DNA of 64,000 nt from an uncultured Verrucomicrobiaceae bacterium (GCA_964500675.1 CAZCNY010000004.1:140361-204360), one strand, 5' to 3'; numbered from the stretch's first letter, positions 35,199-38,630 are shown. Notes: generated by a model from the letters alone, not told the origin. Made by a program: numbers and translations.

Positions 35199-35347
35199 AT
35201 AGATAAAATTAAAATCGGCTTACCTTCGCATATATAACTATTCCTTCCTTTTAATAAGACCGGCTTGAAAGTTAAGGTAACGAGGTCTGGCGAGGCTCGT
35301 CCGCAATAATCTAATGCGCCCATGATGATCTGAAAAGGAGCAACAAA

Positions 35348-37963
35348 ATGGATTTTGTATCGATCGCTGCGACAGTGGTGGCGACGTTATCACCCTATCT
35401 TGGAAAAGCGGCGGGGAAATTCGCCGATGCTGCGGGCGGCGCGGCATGGAACAAGACGACTGAGCTTTATCAGCTGCTTAAAGAGCGGGTGGCGGGTACA
35501 CCCGGCGCGCATGACGCGCTGGCGGAATTGGAGAAAATGCCGGGCGACGCGGCCAAACAAGCCGCGCTGAGCGAACAGTTGAAAAAACTCATCGCCGACG
35601 ATCCCGATTTTCTCAAGCAGGTGGCGAGCCTGACGGAGGCTGCGCATAACGCCGCGGGTTCTCTGGTGTCTGCGCGCGTGCAAGTAATGCCGCCGTTCAA
35701 GCCACTGCTTCACAATATCATTGGCCGCGATGATCTCGTTAAGGAAATCGCGAGCGCGTTAATCTCCGGTCATCGCACGGTTGCCCTGCTGCATTTGCCA
35801 GGTATTGGCAAAACTACATTGGCCGCGATGTTAGCCAAAGACGAAACCTTGTTGAAAAATTATCCGGATGGTTTGTTGTGGGCGCACCTCGGGCTCGATC
35901 CGGATATCCGTGCCGAATTGTTCAAATGGGCCTATGCGCTCGGCGTGCCCGAAGCGCGCATGAAAAATTTCAAAACGCCCGCGGAGTGGAGCGAAGCCAT
36001 ATCGCAAGCGATCGGCGCGCGGCGCATGCTGTTAATCGTCGATGATGTGTGGGAAGCCAGTGCGGGCGATTATTTTTTAATTGGCGGCGAGAATTGCGCG
36101 CACATCGCGACCACACGTTTTCCGATGGTTGCAACCGGTATCGCGACTGCCGGTTTTGAAGTGCGCAAATTGAATATTGCCGATGGCGTTGCGCTGCTAA
36201 GCGGTTTTGCGCCGCAAGCCATTGCTGCGGAACCGATAGCAGCGGCCGTGCTCGTCGAGCTTGTCGACGGGTTGCCCCTGGCACTGGTATTGATGGGGCA
36301 TTACCTGCGGCAGGCAGGAAAATTCAAACAGGCAGGTCGCATTCGCGCAGCGCTCGATGCGCTGCACGACATGGAAAATTTATTTTCATTGCAGCATCCC
36401 GCCGAGTATCCCACGGATACGCCGCGCTCGCTCGCGGGCGTGATCGAAACCAGTTACCGCGCGCTGGGAAAAAATCAGTCGTCGCAAATTCAACCGGTGA
36501 ACGGCGATGAATTGCGCAGAGTGCTGGAGTGTCTATCCGTCTTGCGTCCCGATCCCGCAAAGTTCAGCTTCGCGCTGGCCGCGTTTGTGGCAGACGCTTC
36601 CGGTACAGCTCTCTACGAATTATCCGATGCGGGTTTGATTGAGGTAATGCACGCAGAAAATGGCGAGGAATCCACCAATGAGCAATACGAAGTACCGCAT
36701 GACATCGGCAATCGGTCGGTCGATGAGATAAGCGGCGAAAGTTACGCGATGCATCGCACGATTGCCGAATACGTTCGCACGAAGCTCACACCCGAGCGCG
36801 CCAAAGCGCTGCATTTGCGCGCGGCCACTTATTATCGCGAGCGATTGAATGGGTTGGAAGAACAATACCAAAAGGCCGGCAGCGATTACCAAGGCTGGTA
36901 TCGTTATGAAAATATCGAGTGGCAGGATTGCAAGGATAATTGGCTCTACCATCTATCGAAAACCGATGAGCAACAATTGGCGATCAGCGCTTTCTTGCGC
37001 GCATGGTTTGACGGTTTCTGGTGGTGGGGATGTTTTCTCGATTTCAATTTCTGCGACCAGTTGCTGCGCGAATGGGGGCAACGCAAAGTCGTGCCGGAAG
37101 CTGAGCAGGGTTTACTGTTGTTAAGCCGCTTCATGCAGGTATATCCCAAAGAGACCAGCGATCGCGGCACCGGTAATTGGCAGTTGGTCCAGACATTGTT
37201 AAATGAAGTACGGCAGCGTGCCAAACTCGATGGCGATCCGGAATTATTGACAAGCATCGATGCACGCCACGTGCGCGGCCTGACGAGCATTTTTTTGGCG
37301 GAAGCCCAGCGTTTTGGTCGGCGCGATTTTCAAGCAGCTGAAGTGTTATATCGCGATGCGCTTGCCATGTTCGAACGCAACGATGATGCCTGGGACATGG
37401 CGTGGACTCTTTATCACCTCGCCGATATGTTGAGTCAATGCGAAAAAACCAACGAGGCTCAAGCATTGTGTCGGCAAGCCTTGCCGTTGGGCGAAAAAGA
37501 ATGCGATCCGGAAGTGATCGCCAATCTTTATCGTGTGTGGGGCGACATCGATTGCATTAAGAAAAATTTTGACGCCGCCGCGGATCATTACGATTTGGCG
37601 GTGCAAAATGCTTACCGCTTTCAGATCGAACCCGAAGCGCCCGACGCTTACACCATCCGCTTTTATGCGCAGGTTGCCGAGCAGGTCTGCACACGGCTGC
37701 TCGGCATTTGCGAAGACGCCGAGCCCGAGGCACTAAAAATGGCGCTTGCATTACGCGAGGCGTGGCAAATTGGCGATGCTGCTGATGGATCGACGCTTAA
37801 AGAGGCGCTGCATTGGCGCGATGCCAAAACGCTGCTCGCAAACATCTTTCCAGCGCCGCTCGCCGCTGAGGCTTTGCAGAATAACGGCAAGCGCTATGCC
37901 AGTGGCGTGAAAGCGAAACTAGCGGCGGTTTGCAGGCGCCACGACAAAAATATTTATTACTGA
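35348..37963 (+). CDS. STAND NTPase: short helical N-terminal domain + NB-ARC + C-terminal TPR-like repeat region
   Basis: 871 aa. Motifs are Walker A GIGKTT (nt 35801-35818), Walker B LLIVDDVW (36029-36052), a TTR motif (HIATTR) and GLPLAL (36269-36286). The C-terminal approximately 500 aa are TPR-like helical repeats. The first approximately 115 aa are Ala/Lys-rich and helical with a hydrophobic extreme N-terminus. Confidence 0.85.
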   Translation: MDFVSIAATVVATLSPYLGKAAGKFADAAGGAAWNKTTELYQLLKERVAGTPGAHDALAELEKMPGDAAKQAALSEQLKKLIADDPDFLKQVASLTEAAHNAAGSLVSARVQVMPPFKPLLHNIIGRDDLVKEIASALISGHRTVALLHLPGIGKTTLAAMLAKDETLLKNYPDGLLWAHLGLDPDIRAELFKWAYALGVPEARMKNFKTPAEWSEAISQAIGARRMLLIVDDVWEASAGDYFLIGGENCAHIATTRFPMVATGIATAGFEVRKLNIADGVALLSGFAPQAIAAEPIAAAVLVELVDGLPLALVLMGHYLRQAGKFKQAGRIRAALDALHDMENLFSLQHPAEYPTDTPRSLAGVIETSYRALGKNQSSQIQPVNGDELRRVLECLSVLRPDPAKFSFALAAFVADASGTALYELSDAGLIEVMHAENGEESTNEQYEVPHDIGNRSVDEISGESYAMHRTIAEYVRTKLTPERAKALHLRAATYYRERLNGLEEQYQKAGSDYQGWYRYENIEWQDCKDNWLYHLSKTDEQQLAISAFLRAWFDGFWWWGCFLDFNFCDQLLREWGQRKVVPEAEQGLLLLSRFMQVYPKETSDRGTGNWQLVQTLLNEVRQRAKLDGDPELLTSIDARHVRGLTSIFLAEAQRFGRRDFQAAEVLYRDALAMFERNDDAWDMAWTLYHLADMLSQCEKTNEAQALCRQALPLGEKECDPEVIANLYRVWGDIDCIKKNFDAAADHYDLAVQNAYRFQIEPEAPDAYTIRFYAQVAEQVCTRLLGICEDAEPEALKMALALREAWQIGDAADGSTLKEALHWRDAKTLLANIFPAPLAAEALQNNGKRYASGVKAKLAAVCRRHDKNIYY

Positions 37964-37964
37964 A

Positions 37965-38630
37965 TCAAATACCGACAAGCTGTTCCCCGTGCTTTTTCTT
38001 CAGTGTATCCAATAAACGCTGCGCGTCTTGGCGCCGGCCCATATCGGCGTCGGCGCGATCGGGGCGTGCCGGCGCTGCCAGCGCCTTCTTAAGATGCGCG
38101 GCTGCACTGGCGTATTCGCCCTGATCGGCGAGCAGATCGGCGTAAAAATAATTGGCGTCGATGCTGTCGGCATTGATGGCGAGCGCCTTCTGAAAATATT
38201 CGGCCGCTTTTTTCTTGTCGCCGTAAGCGATCGGCCAACCCGGAACGTTGGCGTAGAGACTGCCGAGCGAACAATAAATCGAACCCTGCAACGCGGTGGG
38301 ATCGATTTTTTCGGCATCGAGCAACAGCTGTCGCGCGTGTTTGACTTTACTCAGCGCACCGAGCCCGCCTTCGGCCTTGGCGGTGCTCGACAAAATAATC
38401 GCCTGCCATACCAGCGGCTCCGCGTGTCCCGGATACGCCGTCGCCACCTGTGCCGCGCGGTCGGCGAGCTGCTCGAATGCGGACGATTGTTCGTTCTCCG
38501 GTGTTTGATAGTTGATGGCGGCCCAGCGGTGCCACTCGTTGCTGAGATCCTGCTGCATATCGGCGCGCGCCGCACTGCTGGCGATCGCGGCGATATAAAG
38601 TGCGGTGCGAACCACTCGATTTAAACGCAT
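37965..38630 (-). CDS. secreted TPR-repeat protein (last gene of the sigma54-driven operon)
   Basis: 221 aa with a signal peptide (ALYIAAIASSAARA) and TPR-like repeats (AAEYFQKALAINADSIDANYFYADLLADQGEYASAAAHLKKAL). Its start is 19 nt downstream of the SDR stop. Confidence 0.7.
   Translation of the reverse strand: MRLNRVVRTALYIAAIASSAARADMQQDLSNEWHRWAAINYQTPENEQSSAFEQLADRAAQVATAYPGHAEPLVWQAIILSSTAKAEGGLGALSKVKHARQLLLDAEKIDPTALQGSIYCSLGSLYANVPGWPIAYGDKKKAAEYFQKALAINADSIDANYFYADLLADQGEYASAAAHLKKALAAPARPDRADADMGRRQDAQRLLDTLKKKHGEQLVGI

Follow-up and report, generated by a model that had tools for sequence, protein, structure and literature searches.

An all-in-one NB-ARC/TPR protein with a Bell-like N-terminal domain, derived from a two-gene ancestor, in an uncultured Verrucomicrobiaceae bacterium

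An NB-ARC gene in a 64,000-nucleotide stretch of the genome of an uncultured Verrucomicrobiaceae bacterium (the whole stretch is referred to here as the window) raises the question of whether one polypeptide combines the sensor, switch and effector of an immune receptor, and from what kind of system it came. An initial annotation had proposed an abortive-infection-type sensor whose helical N-terminal domain acts on membranes or as an adaptor or, equally, a regulatory STAND protein. The ORF is intact, encodes 871 residues (35348..37963, + strand) and starts with ATG, and the NB-ARC motif series was borne out, with all motifs at the positions claimed. The gene also has the AT-rich upstream region ascribed to it (35199..35347, +; GC 0.40 versus ~0.55 locally), in which we read a ribosome-binding site, AAGGAG (35335-35340, +), 7 nt 5′ of the ATG. 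There is a promoter-like match at 35180-35209, although such matches in the region are not above chance expectation. At the 3′ end, the NLR stop codon (TGA, 37961-37963) lies, as had been noted, 1 nt from that of a convergent minus-strand TPR lipoprotein-like gene (37965-37967, TCA on the + strand), and a scan of the region for terminator-like sites found no hairpin at these convergent stops (37961..37967). Pfam and NCBIfam profile searches likewise agreed with the annotation in detecting no enzymatic effector domain. The identical 871-residue protein is present in two Logan assemblies and one NCBI record.

Residues 111-480 (35678..36787, +) constitute the NB-ARC NTPase module (NBD, helical domain and winged helix). 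The Pfam search matched PF00931 to residues 128-328 (E=7.9e-15, 55.2 bits against a cut-off of 23.5), and the module contains, all on the + strand, Walker A GIGKTT (residues 152-157, including K155; 35801-35818), Walker B LLIVDDVW (228-235; 36029-36052), sensor-1 TTR (255-257; 36110-36118), GLPLA(L) (308-313; 36269-36286) and an MHD-like MHR (468-470; 36749-36757). K155, DD232-233, TTR, GLPLA and MHR are kept across the 33-member family. The AF2 model of the full-length protein (pLDDT 82, pTM 0.71) had Apaf-1 (1z6t) as its best Foldseek match (E=8e-12), followed by the STAND-TPR protein 6mfv, NRC2/3/4, the ZAR1 and Sr35 resistosomes and CED-4 (E 1e-8 to 1e-11); the PDB sequence matches of the module were also to plant NLRs and Apaf-1. 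These results confirm that the window protein is a STAND NTPase of the AP-ATPase/NB-ARC clade (PF00931).

The C-terminal region, residues 482-869 (36791..37954, +), was modeled by AF2 as a single all-helical repeat domain or solenoid with pLDDT mostly above 85, and by analogy with other STAND architectures it is presumably the sensor. The ~500 residues of TPR-like repeats first attributed to this region were roughly right, in that the modeled helical repeats span ~390 residues, but Pfam detected TPRs only at residues 638-759 (37259-37624, +), where the matches to TPR_12, TPR_MalT and TPR_10 were weak and all below gathering scores (TPR_MalT, confined to the repeat region, scored 24 bits against a cut-off of 45). 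An aromatic cluster, WFDGFWWWGCF...FCDQLL (residues 549-572; 36992-37063, +), is invariant in the family alignment (F549, F557, W558-W560, F568, C569 and L572), and overall the repeat domain is as conserved as the NB-ARC module. The presumed sensor is therefore strongly conserved and not diversifying, which fits a conserved ligand and is untypical of arms-race receptors, a point that counts against the defensive role we favor below.

The N-terminal domain (residues 1-99; 35348..35644, +) was modeled as five helices at residues 3-22, 32-48, 52-63, 68-84 and 86-108 (pLDDT 81.8, pTM 0.66). The initial annotation was thus correct in calling this region helical, although its estimate of ~115 residues covers a folded part of ~100 residues and a linker of ~10. 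The hydrophobic stretch it had pointed out corresponds to helix 1 (residues 3-22; 35354..35413, +), which follows Asp2 and is a candidate membrane-inserting helix (a "MEPIS"-type region); residues 3-19, FVSIAATVVATLSPYLG, have a mean Kyte-Doolittle value of +1.56, while helices 2-5 span -0.63 to +0.23. The protein begins MDFVSIAATVVATLSPYLG and its relatives begin MDP or MEP, and D2, V11, L14, P16, Y17 and L18 each reach a conservation of 90% or more across the N-domain family. In absolute terms the hydrophobicity of helix 1 is only moderate, an observation that counts against a membrane role.

The N-domain is homologous to a family of small proteins. Along its full length it shares 50-63% identity with the stand-alone proteins encoded directly upstream of five NLR relatives (P0004, P0006, P0007, P0009 and P0002), with BLASTP giving 56% identity to P0075 (E=2e-38), and a profile built without the window protein matched it over HMM positions 1-99 (E=1.4e-33). 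Elsewhere in the 64-kb window, and among the remaining 69 NB-ARC relatives, the same profile found no match. The family comprises 5,390 clusters at 50% identity, with members in Cyanobacteria and Chloroflexota, and among its best 150 matches almost all are 120-160 residues long; a "MEPLT..." small protein of Nostoc PCC 7120 encoded upstream of an NB-ARC gene scored 35.8 bits with the window-free profile. Matches to Pfam HetE-N (PF20701) were sub-threshold (17.2 and 14.3 bits against a cut-off of 25), there was no Rx_N/CC Pfam match, and a PDB sequence search with the domain found nothing. The comparison with CC, HeLo or MLKL bundles that had been proposed revealed no likeness: the best Foldseek match in the PDB had E=0.16 and a TM of ~0.3, with no HeLo, MLKL 4HB, CC or Babybell target among the matches, and against viral structures no match was significant (best E=1.1). 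Since no fold match was significant, the idea of a membrane pore rests on analogy with Bell/Babybell proteins (10.1101/2024.11.07.622273), and helical bundle topology is described as varying widely within the HeLo-Bell superfamily (10.1101/2024.11.07.622273).

The small proteins upstream of the closest NLR relatives (the nearest of which are betaproteobacterial) are 130-140 residues long and consist of the N-domain plus a Q/N/G-rich tail of ~25 residues only, and each tail mirrors the N-terminal head of its own NLR. Six of seven cognate tail/head pairs scored z=3.6-7.8 against shuffles, with the L007 pair not significant by itself; the motif-B tail of L091 scored 49 with its cognate head and no more than 20 with any other, and three more matching pairs were found in L097, L099 and L102. 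Between effector and NLR gene there is either a 4-nt overlap or a gap of no more than 23 nt, the same spacing as in published Bell/BASS pairs. In 15 of 32 relatives sequence inspection identified a DUF4062-type domain at the NLR N-terminus (PF13271 is recorded for six of these 15 and was confirmed for P0012), and DUF4062 domains are TIR-like NADases that serve as effectors in antiphage defence (PMC13174449). That the N-domain is an effector-type module, as first suggested, is thus backed by its homology to small proteins with no other domain, by their coupling to sister NLRs through tail/head motifs and by the occurrence of DUF4062 in the same slot.

These relatives also reveal the origin of the window gene. 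When the window protein was aligned with the concatenated L007 small protein and P0009, the only interruption was a single 60-residue gap that covers both the effector tail motif and the NLR head motif, and the linker at residues 100-110 (35645..35677, +), which has no counterpart in the relatives and a low AF2 pLDDT, stands in for the tail motif, stop codon, intergenic gap and head motif of the two-gene form. Residues 90-135 of the window protein contain nothing that resembles either motif. Its NLR part is sister to the two-gene P0009 (198/200 bootstraps) and nested in the motif-A clade (157/200). The fused gene therefore derives from a two-gene ancestor by loss of ~60 codons that included both motifs; it descends from an amyloid-signaling (BASS-type) system but, lacking both motifs, is not itself one. 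It is a fused form with an identified two-gene sister, P0009.

The gene is patchily distributed. The closest genome (L009) is collinear with the window from 23432 to 35200 in blastn comparisons, with a Rep 89% identical, and resumes at 48024; an unrelated 5-kb stretch takes the place of the intervening 12.8-kb segment (35201..48023). The placement of the NLR between the housekeeping rep and an unrelated minus-strand operon was right as to rep, but the gene sits at the left edge of this variable segment. Neither the NLR nor the adjacent minus-strand operon occurs in any of 80 rep-anchored loci; the gene is thus missing from the closest genome and is not a universal, syntenic core gene. Sequence comparisons took the host for a Spongiibacteraceae-like gammaproteobacterium, whereas its nearest NLR relatives are betaproteobacterial. 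There was no defence-island context in the 64-kb window or in the relatives' loci, and PADLOC (PADLOC-DB v2), a catalog check proposed in the annotation, returned zero matches for the window protein (no Avs1-5 or bNACHT model) and for relatives P0004, P0012, P0024 and P0032; among relatives the sole matches came from P0015 and P0018, whose DUF4062-like N-termini hit a candidate, PDC-S60.

Taking these data together, we consider it likely that the window gene encodes a single-chain NLR in which a Bell-like cell-death domain, an NB-ARC switch and a TPR sensor are joined, and which kills through its N-terminal helix after ligand-driven oligomerization. At rest the NTPase would be ADP-bound and held closed by the repeat domain, with helix 1 sheathed by helices 2-5. 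Binding of a ligand, most likely phage-derived, to the repeat domain would lead to nucleotide exchange and oligomerization into a ring, and the clustered N-domains could then free helix 1 for insertion into the inner membrane, causing permeabilization and death (abortive infection). In the relatives the proximity signal would instead pass to the separate effector by amyloid-type templating, from NLR head to effector tail, a step that the covalent link would replace in the window protein. Membrane action is postulated by analogy with the Bell-type domain of Bab, which executes Abi, moves to the cell periphery and requires its helix 1 (10.1101/2024.11.07.622273); the trigger and the antiphage activity are also postulated.

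Among known systems the closest are the Bell/BASS pairs and all-in-one Bell-NLRs described by Dyrka et al., 2020 (10.1101/2020.01.06.895854). They share an N-domain of ~100 residues with five helices, the first of them hydrophobic and preceded by an acidic second residue, an NB-ARC/TPR partner and, in the relatives, collinear and overlapping or nearly overlapping genes with tailed effectors of 130-140 residues that mirror the NLR head. However, the host clade was read here as Proteobacteria, a gammaproteobacterium with betaproteobacterial relatives, whereas filamentous Actinobacteria and Cyanobacteria were stressed there, the relatives' motifs were not placed in BASS1-10, and their cassettes add a conserved ABM-domain gene. 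The window gene thus joins an already described, rarer all-in-one architecture, and the suggestion of a variant outside the known effector classes was overstated, the more so as the same N-terminal motif region has been reported in Avs2 and bNACHT02/11/23. The Bab/Agp system of E. coli (10.1101/2024.11.07.622273) also uses a small, helical executioner of the Bell type, whose N-terminal helix is conserved and whose proposed target is the membrane, and its sensor, like those of the window gene's relatives, activates through a shared amyloid motif; Babybell, however, is ~80 residues long with another helix topology, and the window protein lacks any amyloid motif, while its N-domain resembled no PDB entry in sequence or Foldseek searches.

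More distant parallels exist in eukaryotes. In fungal HeLo/HELL NLRs (NWD2/HET-S) fused and amyloid-linked separate forms coexist for one effector class and an N-terminal hydrophobic helix is freed on activation, but these belong to another kingdom, have a NACHT/WD40 partner in the archetype, function in allorecognition and have no detected sequence homology. Plant CC-NLR resistosomes (ZAR1, Sr35, NRC2/3/4) share the AP-ATPase clade switch (Foldseek E 1e-9 to 1e-11) and a bundle of helices at the N-terminus, the first of which becomes a membrane funnel in plants after oligomerization; they differ in having LRRs where the window sensor has TPR-like helical repeats, and the window N-domain matches theirs neither by Pfam (Rx_N/CC) nor structurally. 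Avs2 (AVAST type 2) and bNACHT02/11/23 are likewise single-gene STAND defence proteins, reported to carry the conserved N-terminal "MEPIS" helix region, mutations in which impair Avs2 defence (10.1101/2024.11.07.622273), but the window NTPase is NB-ARC, not Avs-type STAND or NACHT, its sensor is unrelated, and PADLOC did not place it with them.

It is unlikely, in our view, that the N-domain is an adaptor rather than an executioner, nucleating free Bell-like proteins or recruiting an effector encoded elsewhere in the manner of CARD/Death-like domains. The domain does occur in other proteins fused to the adaptor-type modules EAD7, TCAD2 and TCAD9, its fold does not match known pore-forming bundles, and as 64 kb of genome were seen free partners may lie elsewhere. 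Against this, the relatives' small protein is the domain plus a coupling tail, so that the cassette encodes nothing further downstream than the domain; no second copy lies within the window, and the related Bab domain is sufficient as an executioner once templated (10.1101/2024.11.07.622273). Quite improbable, too, is a regulatory or housekeeping STAND (a MalT/AfsR-like integrator or a membrane sensor anchored by helix 1) with no role in death or defence. Such a role would suit the conserved sensor, the metabolic and regulatory (not defence) genes that neighbor the NLR, the XRE-type HTH or SARP/BTAD DNA-binding domains of more distant NB-ARC/TPR relatives (P0034-P0070) and the ABM-family partner in the relatives' cassettes, a fold common in metabolism. 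But this alternative, raised in the initial annotation, found no support in Pfam/NCBIfam searches, which detected no DNA-binding (LuxR-type HTH, SARP/BTAD or XRE HTH) or enzymatic output domain, and it sits poorly with an N-domain family of tail-tagged small proteins paired with NLRs, with the exchange of the N-terminal slot for an NADase defence effector within the clade and with the absence of the gene from the closest relative.

That the fusion is a by-product without function, left by a chance deletion that joined the two genes in frame and broke signaling in an ORF that has not yet decayed, appears to us very unlikely, although it is the only fused example among 70 NB-ARC relatives and in two metagenome scans and its ~10-residue linker is short and peculiar to it. 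Moreover, the ABM-domain gene that accompanies most of the relatives' cassettes is absent beside the window NLR, and with this companion lost the fused gene may lack a needed partner. Yet all-in-one Bell-NLRs exist elsewhere (10.1101/2020.01.06.895854), the 871-codon ORF retains every NTPase motif behind a good ribosome-binding site, and the 64-68% protein identity between the window NLR and its sister implies enough time since the split for stops to have arisen in an ORF free of constraint. The GC and GC3 of the gene are also near those of the host, an indication of long residence in this genome.

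The window NLR is encoded by a genuine 871-aa ORF (35348..37963, + strand) with an ATG start, which is preceded at 7 nt by the ribosome-binding site AAGGAG. This site lies inside a 149-bp spacer of GC 0.40 (~0.55 locally), bearing out the initial annotation, which had described an AT-rich upstream region of the gene's own. All of the NB-ARC motifs quoted there were located, namely the Walker A sequence GIGKTT (aa 152-157, with K155), LLIVDDVW (aa 228-235), TTR (aa 255-257) and GLPLA(L) (aa 308-313), and the protein also has an MHD-like MHR (aa 468-470). The TGA stop codon (37961-37963) is indeed 1 nt from that of the convergent gene for a 221-aa TPR protein (37965-37967), with no terminator-like hairpin found at these stops (37961-37967), and promoter and terminator scans of the region gave counts no higher than chance.

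The Pfam NB-ARC family (PF00931) matched aa 128-328 (E=7.9e-15; 55 bits vs. a gathering score of 23.5), and TPR_12, TPR_MalT and TPR_10 gave weak Pfam matches at aa 638-759. The catalytic residues are invariant or almost so in a 33-sequence family alignment. The full-length AlphaFold2 model, also from a 33-sequence alignment (mean pLDDT 82.2, pTM 0.71), shows an alpha/beta NTPase predicted with confidence and, C-terminal to it, a solenoid made entirely of helices (aa 482-869); the repeats previously put at ~500 aa are thus helical as claimed but span ~390 aa, of which Pfam calls only ~120 aa TPR. In Foldseek against the PDB, the top match of this model was Apaf-1 (1z6t, E=8e-12), and the other best matches (E 1e-8 to 1e-11) were the prokaryotic STAND-TPR protein 6mfv, CED-4 and Dark, together with the plant CC-NLR resistosomes NRC2/3/4, ZAR1 and Sr35. 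The PDB sequence search agreed, and the window protein is a genuine AP-ATPase-type NLR. No enzymatic domain, as had been noted, and no DNA-binding domain was detected in it by Pfam or NCBIfam, the latter returning noise only.

Homology searches identified ~32 full-length relatives with 40-64% identity that cover only 82-89% of the window NLR. In all of them the N-terminus differs from that of the window protein, which is the only one to carry the helical domain. Nine relatives (P0002-P0010) have as their N-terminus a ~40-aa head motif alone (DFxNQxxDVxNLTQ...LTINQY), eight have other short Q/N/G-rich heads, and 15 have an N-terminal domain of ~200 residues, for which PF13271 (DUF4062) was recorded in 6 of the 15 and confirmed for one (P0012). 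Each short-head relative examined has a gene for a protein of 131-139 residues directly 5' on the same strand, which either has a 4-nt overlap with the NLR start or is separated from it by a gap of ≤23 nt. Residues 1-100 of these small proteins are 50-63% identical to window aa 1-100 with zero internal gaps, and BLASTP of the window N-domain with a stand-alone relative (P0075) gave 56% identity (E=2e-38). A domain HMM built from 37 diverse stand-alone members, with the window sequence left out, matched window aa 1-98 over its full length (E=1.4e-33, 111 bits); neither the remaining ORFs of the 64-kb window nor the 69 other NB-ARC relatives gave a match.

The small proteins all terminate in a tail of ~25 aa, rich in Q, N, G, V and I and similar to the head of the NLR with which each is paired, as in the tail/head pairs GNVTNLTQAGNVGTLNIS and GDVANLTQVGHVESLTIN (locus L003), ADSIGSVVNAGSVQTLNIG and ADRIENLIQIASLGALNLG (L089), and AQGTVIGDHAQVTMTF and VQGAVIGDNNTVTLIY (L091). 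Six of seven cognate pairs matched at z=3.6-7.8 relative to shuffled tails (empirical p≤0.005); the pair of locus L007, taken alone, had no significance against shuffled tails. The L091 tail scored 49 with its own head and ≤20 with every other head. Metagenome loci supplied three further matching pairs (e.g., tail RSVAIGGDNSGVIITGG and head RSVAIGGYNSGMVITGD at L102), and in the wider family at least four or five tail motif types occur on the one domain. The two-gene cassettes of the relatives fit the operational definition of the Bell/BASS-NLR pairs, whose genes are collinear and ≤10 bp apart or overlapping, with an NB-ARC/TPR partner and ~25-aa motifs in which Q, N, G, V and I are over-represented (Dyrka et al., 2020; 10.1101/2020.01.06.895854). 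An indirect link to the Bell family comes from the conjugative plasmid pCC7120gamma of Nostoc sp. PCC 7120 (L094; gene pair WP_044520337.1/WP_044520336.1), where a "MEPLT..." protein of 139 aa whose tail is rich in N, Q, G and T (2408-2824; 35.8 bits to the window-free HMM) is followed, 63 nt 3' and in frame, by a large NB-ARC gene (2888-5879).

The AlphaFold2 model of aa 1-110 (53-sequence alignment; pLDDT 81.8, pTM 0.66) contains five helices (3-22, 32-48, 52-63, 68-84, and 86-108), so that the domain earlier estimated at ~115 aa is helical as proposed, but its folded part is ~100 aa with a ~10-aa linker. Helix 1 alone is hydrophobic (mean Kyte-Doolittle +1.56; other helices -0.63 to +0.23), and Asp2, V11, L14, P16, Y17, and L18 are ≥90% conserved in the N-domain family. 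These properties resemble those of the published Bell domain (~100 aa, five helices, hydrophobic helix 1, acidic residue at position 2 or 3), and they fit the "MEPIS" region common to Bab, Bell, Hell, Avs2, and bNACHT02/11/23 (Ibarlosa et al., 2024; 10.1101/2024.11.07.622273). In abortive infection Bab serves as the executioner; it moves to the cell periphery, and its function is destroyed by the helix-1 mutation G11K (10.1101/2024.11.07.622273). Foldseek with the N-domain model gave nothing significant against either the PDB (best E=0.16) or the BFVD viral library (best E=1.1); the comparison with CC/HeLo/MLKL-type bundles proposed in the initial annotation thus gave no match, a Babybell fold was likewise not confirmed, and no other fold could be assigned. 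A profile search of PDB sequences with the N-domain returned de novo designed helical proteins only (E>0.1), Pfam assigned neither it nor the small proteins to a family, and the Het-E N-terminal domain (PF20701, HetE-N), on which our literature search found nothing relevant, gave a below-threshold match in two distant members only. Probable membership of the Bell family in its authors' sense is supported by architecture, context and signature.

At 50% identity the N-domain family comprises 5,390 clusters at E≤1e-3 and 2,270 at E≤1e-10, with named members from Cyanobacteria, Chloroflexota, and Alpha-, Beta- and Gammaproteobacteria. Nearly all of the best 150 matches are 120-160 aa long, and the few longer members retain the tail and have an added EAD7, TCAD2 or TCAD9 module, types already described in NTP-dependent conflict systems. 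Three such proteins from other organisms (P0177, P0241 and P0266) have a Bell-like domain and amyloid-type tail fused to TCAD9 (kinase-like), EAD7 or TCAD2; fusions of this kind tie the family to effector-associated-domain and "ternary complex" conflict systems. The word-indexed homology search missed the window protein even with its own N-domain in the query alignment, and for this reason we make no claim that fusions are absent generally. Such a search seems to under-report long multidomain proteins for short-domain queries, and the architecture census leans to stand-alone forms.

When the window protein was aligned to a concatenation of the L007 small protein and its NLR, P0009, a single 60-residue gap sufficed and the flanks aligned well. 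The gap corresponds to the effector tail (~27 aa) plus the NLR head (~33 aa), after which the NLR side restarts at ARVQVMPPFKPLL, identical in both proteins; no tail- or head-like motif was found in the window junction (aa 90-135). In a neighbor-joining tree (323 NB-ARC columns, 200 bootstraps), the window NLR groups with P0009 as its sister in 198/200 replicates and lies within the motif-A two-gene clade in 157/200. As it is nested in this clade, the fused state is derived from a two-gene ancestor, and the alignment traces the fused gene to the loss of both tags. The window protein forms a singleton cluster. A scan of JGI metagenome contigs with a junction-spanning 200-aa query found no other fused orthologue, and a metagenome scan with an alignment as query turned up seven loci, each with the two-gene layout. 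A Paraburkholderia match from the plasmid collection that resembled a second fusion proved to be a winged-helix regulator plus ATPase. The value of the locus is that a fusion can be traced from a two-gene amyloid-tag system inside one clade.

The same N-terminal position is also occupied by DUF4062, which replaces the head motif in close clade members. DUF4062-bearing members are found at several places in the NB-ARC tree, implying repeated exchange of the N-terminal module. DUF4062 has been described as a TIR-like NADase in antiphage defence that takes the CARD-equivalent position in NACHT proteins (2026 preprints, PMC13174449). The DUF4062-like N-termini of two relatives (P0015 and P0018) partially matched the candidate PADLOC system PDC-S60, and no other PADLOC model matched the window protein, the relatives or the cassette partners. 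Directly 5' of the effector/NLR cassette is a gene for an ABM-domain protein (PF03992; 99-204 aa), sometimes in tandem duplication. It was present at seven of the eight relative NLRs examined (L003 5197-5502, L004 4964-5578, L006 5008-5556, L007 6737-7042, L008 3794-4093, L089 4261-4590 and L093 4674-4997), P0024 being the exception, and these include the DUF4062-type P0015, which lacks a small protein. The ABM gene is absent from L091, was not detected in the window by tblastn (best E=0.15), and matched no PADLOC model.

The same locus was sought in other genomes using Rep as an anchor. The closest genome, a Spongiibacteraceae MAG (Rep 89%, GGDEF/EAL 87% and AAA 86% identical; Litorivivens is next, at 71%), is syntenic with window positions 23432-35200, up to the rep stop codon, and again from 48024. 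The intervening 12.8 kb of the window, which corresponds to an unrelated 5 kb in the MAG, holds the NLR, a minus-strand TPR/SDR/haem-oxygenase-like/AMP-binding/T_hemolysin/BBP2 operon and a HisKA/sigma54 two-component pair. The NLR was found in 0/80 rep loci, its nearest relatives belong to Betaproteobacteria (Niveibacterium, Rhodocyclaceae and Uliginosibacterium), and their cassettes have a different neighbourhood at every locus. One two-gene cassette of this kind occupies 2239217-2241942 of Niveibacterium sp. SC-1 CP151275. The gene is therefore accessory and patchy, and not the core gene that would have counted against the proposal of the initial annotation. Its GC (0.549) and GC3 (0.606) fall just short of those of its neighbours, no defence-island context was seen around it, and PLSDB plasmids contained no close relative, only distant NB-ARC matches.

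By analogy with established STAND/NLR proteins (Apaf-1, ZAR1) and with Bell/Bab, binding of a ligand to the helical-repeat domain would release autoinhibition, nucleotide exchange would lead to assembly of a ring, and the clustered N-domains would expose helix 1, which would insert into the membrane and cause cell death. That a NADase, DUF4062, sits at the same position supports reading the N-terminus of the scaffold as an executioner slot, and we think it improbable that the N-domain acts as an adaptor instead. As to the sensor, the C-terminal domain and the NTPase show the same degree of conservation in the 33-member alignment, and an aromatic cluster (WFDGFWWWGCF...FCDQLL; aa 549-572, nt 36992-37063) is invariant in 33/33 members, so there is no hypervariable sensor. 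Conservation this high is unusual for an arms-race receptor; it suggests a conserved ligand, and hints at either such a ligand or an intramolecular latch. A regulatory STAND protein with no death role, which the initial annotation had thought equally plausible, we rate as slightly less probable than an adaptor, and a non-functional fusion as the least probable; none of the three is favoured. The proposal of an immune sensor with an N-terminal helical effector has largely held on comparative evidence, but not as a new kind of system: the protein is a Bell-like NLR of the "all-in-one" layout, which is familiar from fungi and had been described before as a rare one in bacteria.

The clade to which it belongs is found in Proteobacteria and has yet to enter the catalogues of defence systems; it usually has an ABM partner, and has a DUF4062 NADase in the slot of some members. 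Its absence from PADLOC models, the strongly conserved Trp-rich sensor and the conserved ABM-domain partner gene lie behind a further reading, which we regard as possible though rather unlikely, that the clade is an uncatalogued antiphage NLR family whose slot has switched repeatedly between NADase fusion, recruitment of a pore-type effector by amyloid tags, and effector fusion. Were this true, the window gene would show, as a natural case, that amyloid templating is functionally equal to simple induced proximity in bacterial immunity, and the ABM protein could be an enzyme that makes a signal or processes a ligand, a third component with which the fused form dispenses. Fungi, animals and bacteria share amyloid signalling between NLRs and Bell/HeLo-type executioners, an immune principle established only recently. 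The locus provides a matched natural pair, a fused single-chain receptor and a two-gene sister (64-68% identity over the NLR, 56% in the effector domain), which differ essentially by two amyloid-type tags, making it testable whether the amyloid step does more than bring executioner domains together. It also extends Bell-type NLR systems to unicellular Proteobacteria, exhibits one NLR scaffold alternating between membrane-type and DUF4062 NADase effectors, and flags the conserved ABM-domain companion gene.

Several other features of the window were observed. The convergent operon (37965-44004, - strand) encodes a TPR lipoprotein-like protein, an SDR, a haem-oxygenase-like protein (PF14518), an AMP-binding enzyme, a T_hemolysin (PF12261) acyltransferase-like protein, a 157-aa protein and a BBP2 outer-membrane-like protein, and resembles a small cluster for a lipid or secondary metabolite; it is missing from 80/80 rep-anchored loci and therefore also accessory. 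The 3' 45 bp of tRNA-Phe(GAA) (57916-57991, - strand) are duplicated exactly at 50348-50392. The ~7.5 kb between the copies have a GC of 0.44-0.50 and negative GC skew and encode a tyrosine integrase (50390-51313, - strand), a Zot/pI-type ATPase (51830-52948, - strand) and two ORFs with no Pfam match; in the closest genome (L009) the site is empty, and a single 45-bp copy is present. The region 50348-57991 probably represents an integrated prophage of the filamentous (inovirus-like) kind. Another paralogue of the UvrD/Rep helicase family lies at ~1275-2640 (- strand), to which the rep region of L009 gave secondary blastn/tblastx matches of ~70-75% nucleotide identity in short stretches.
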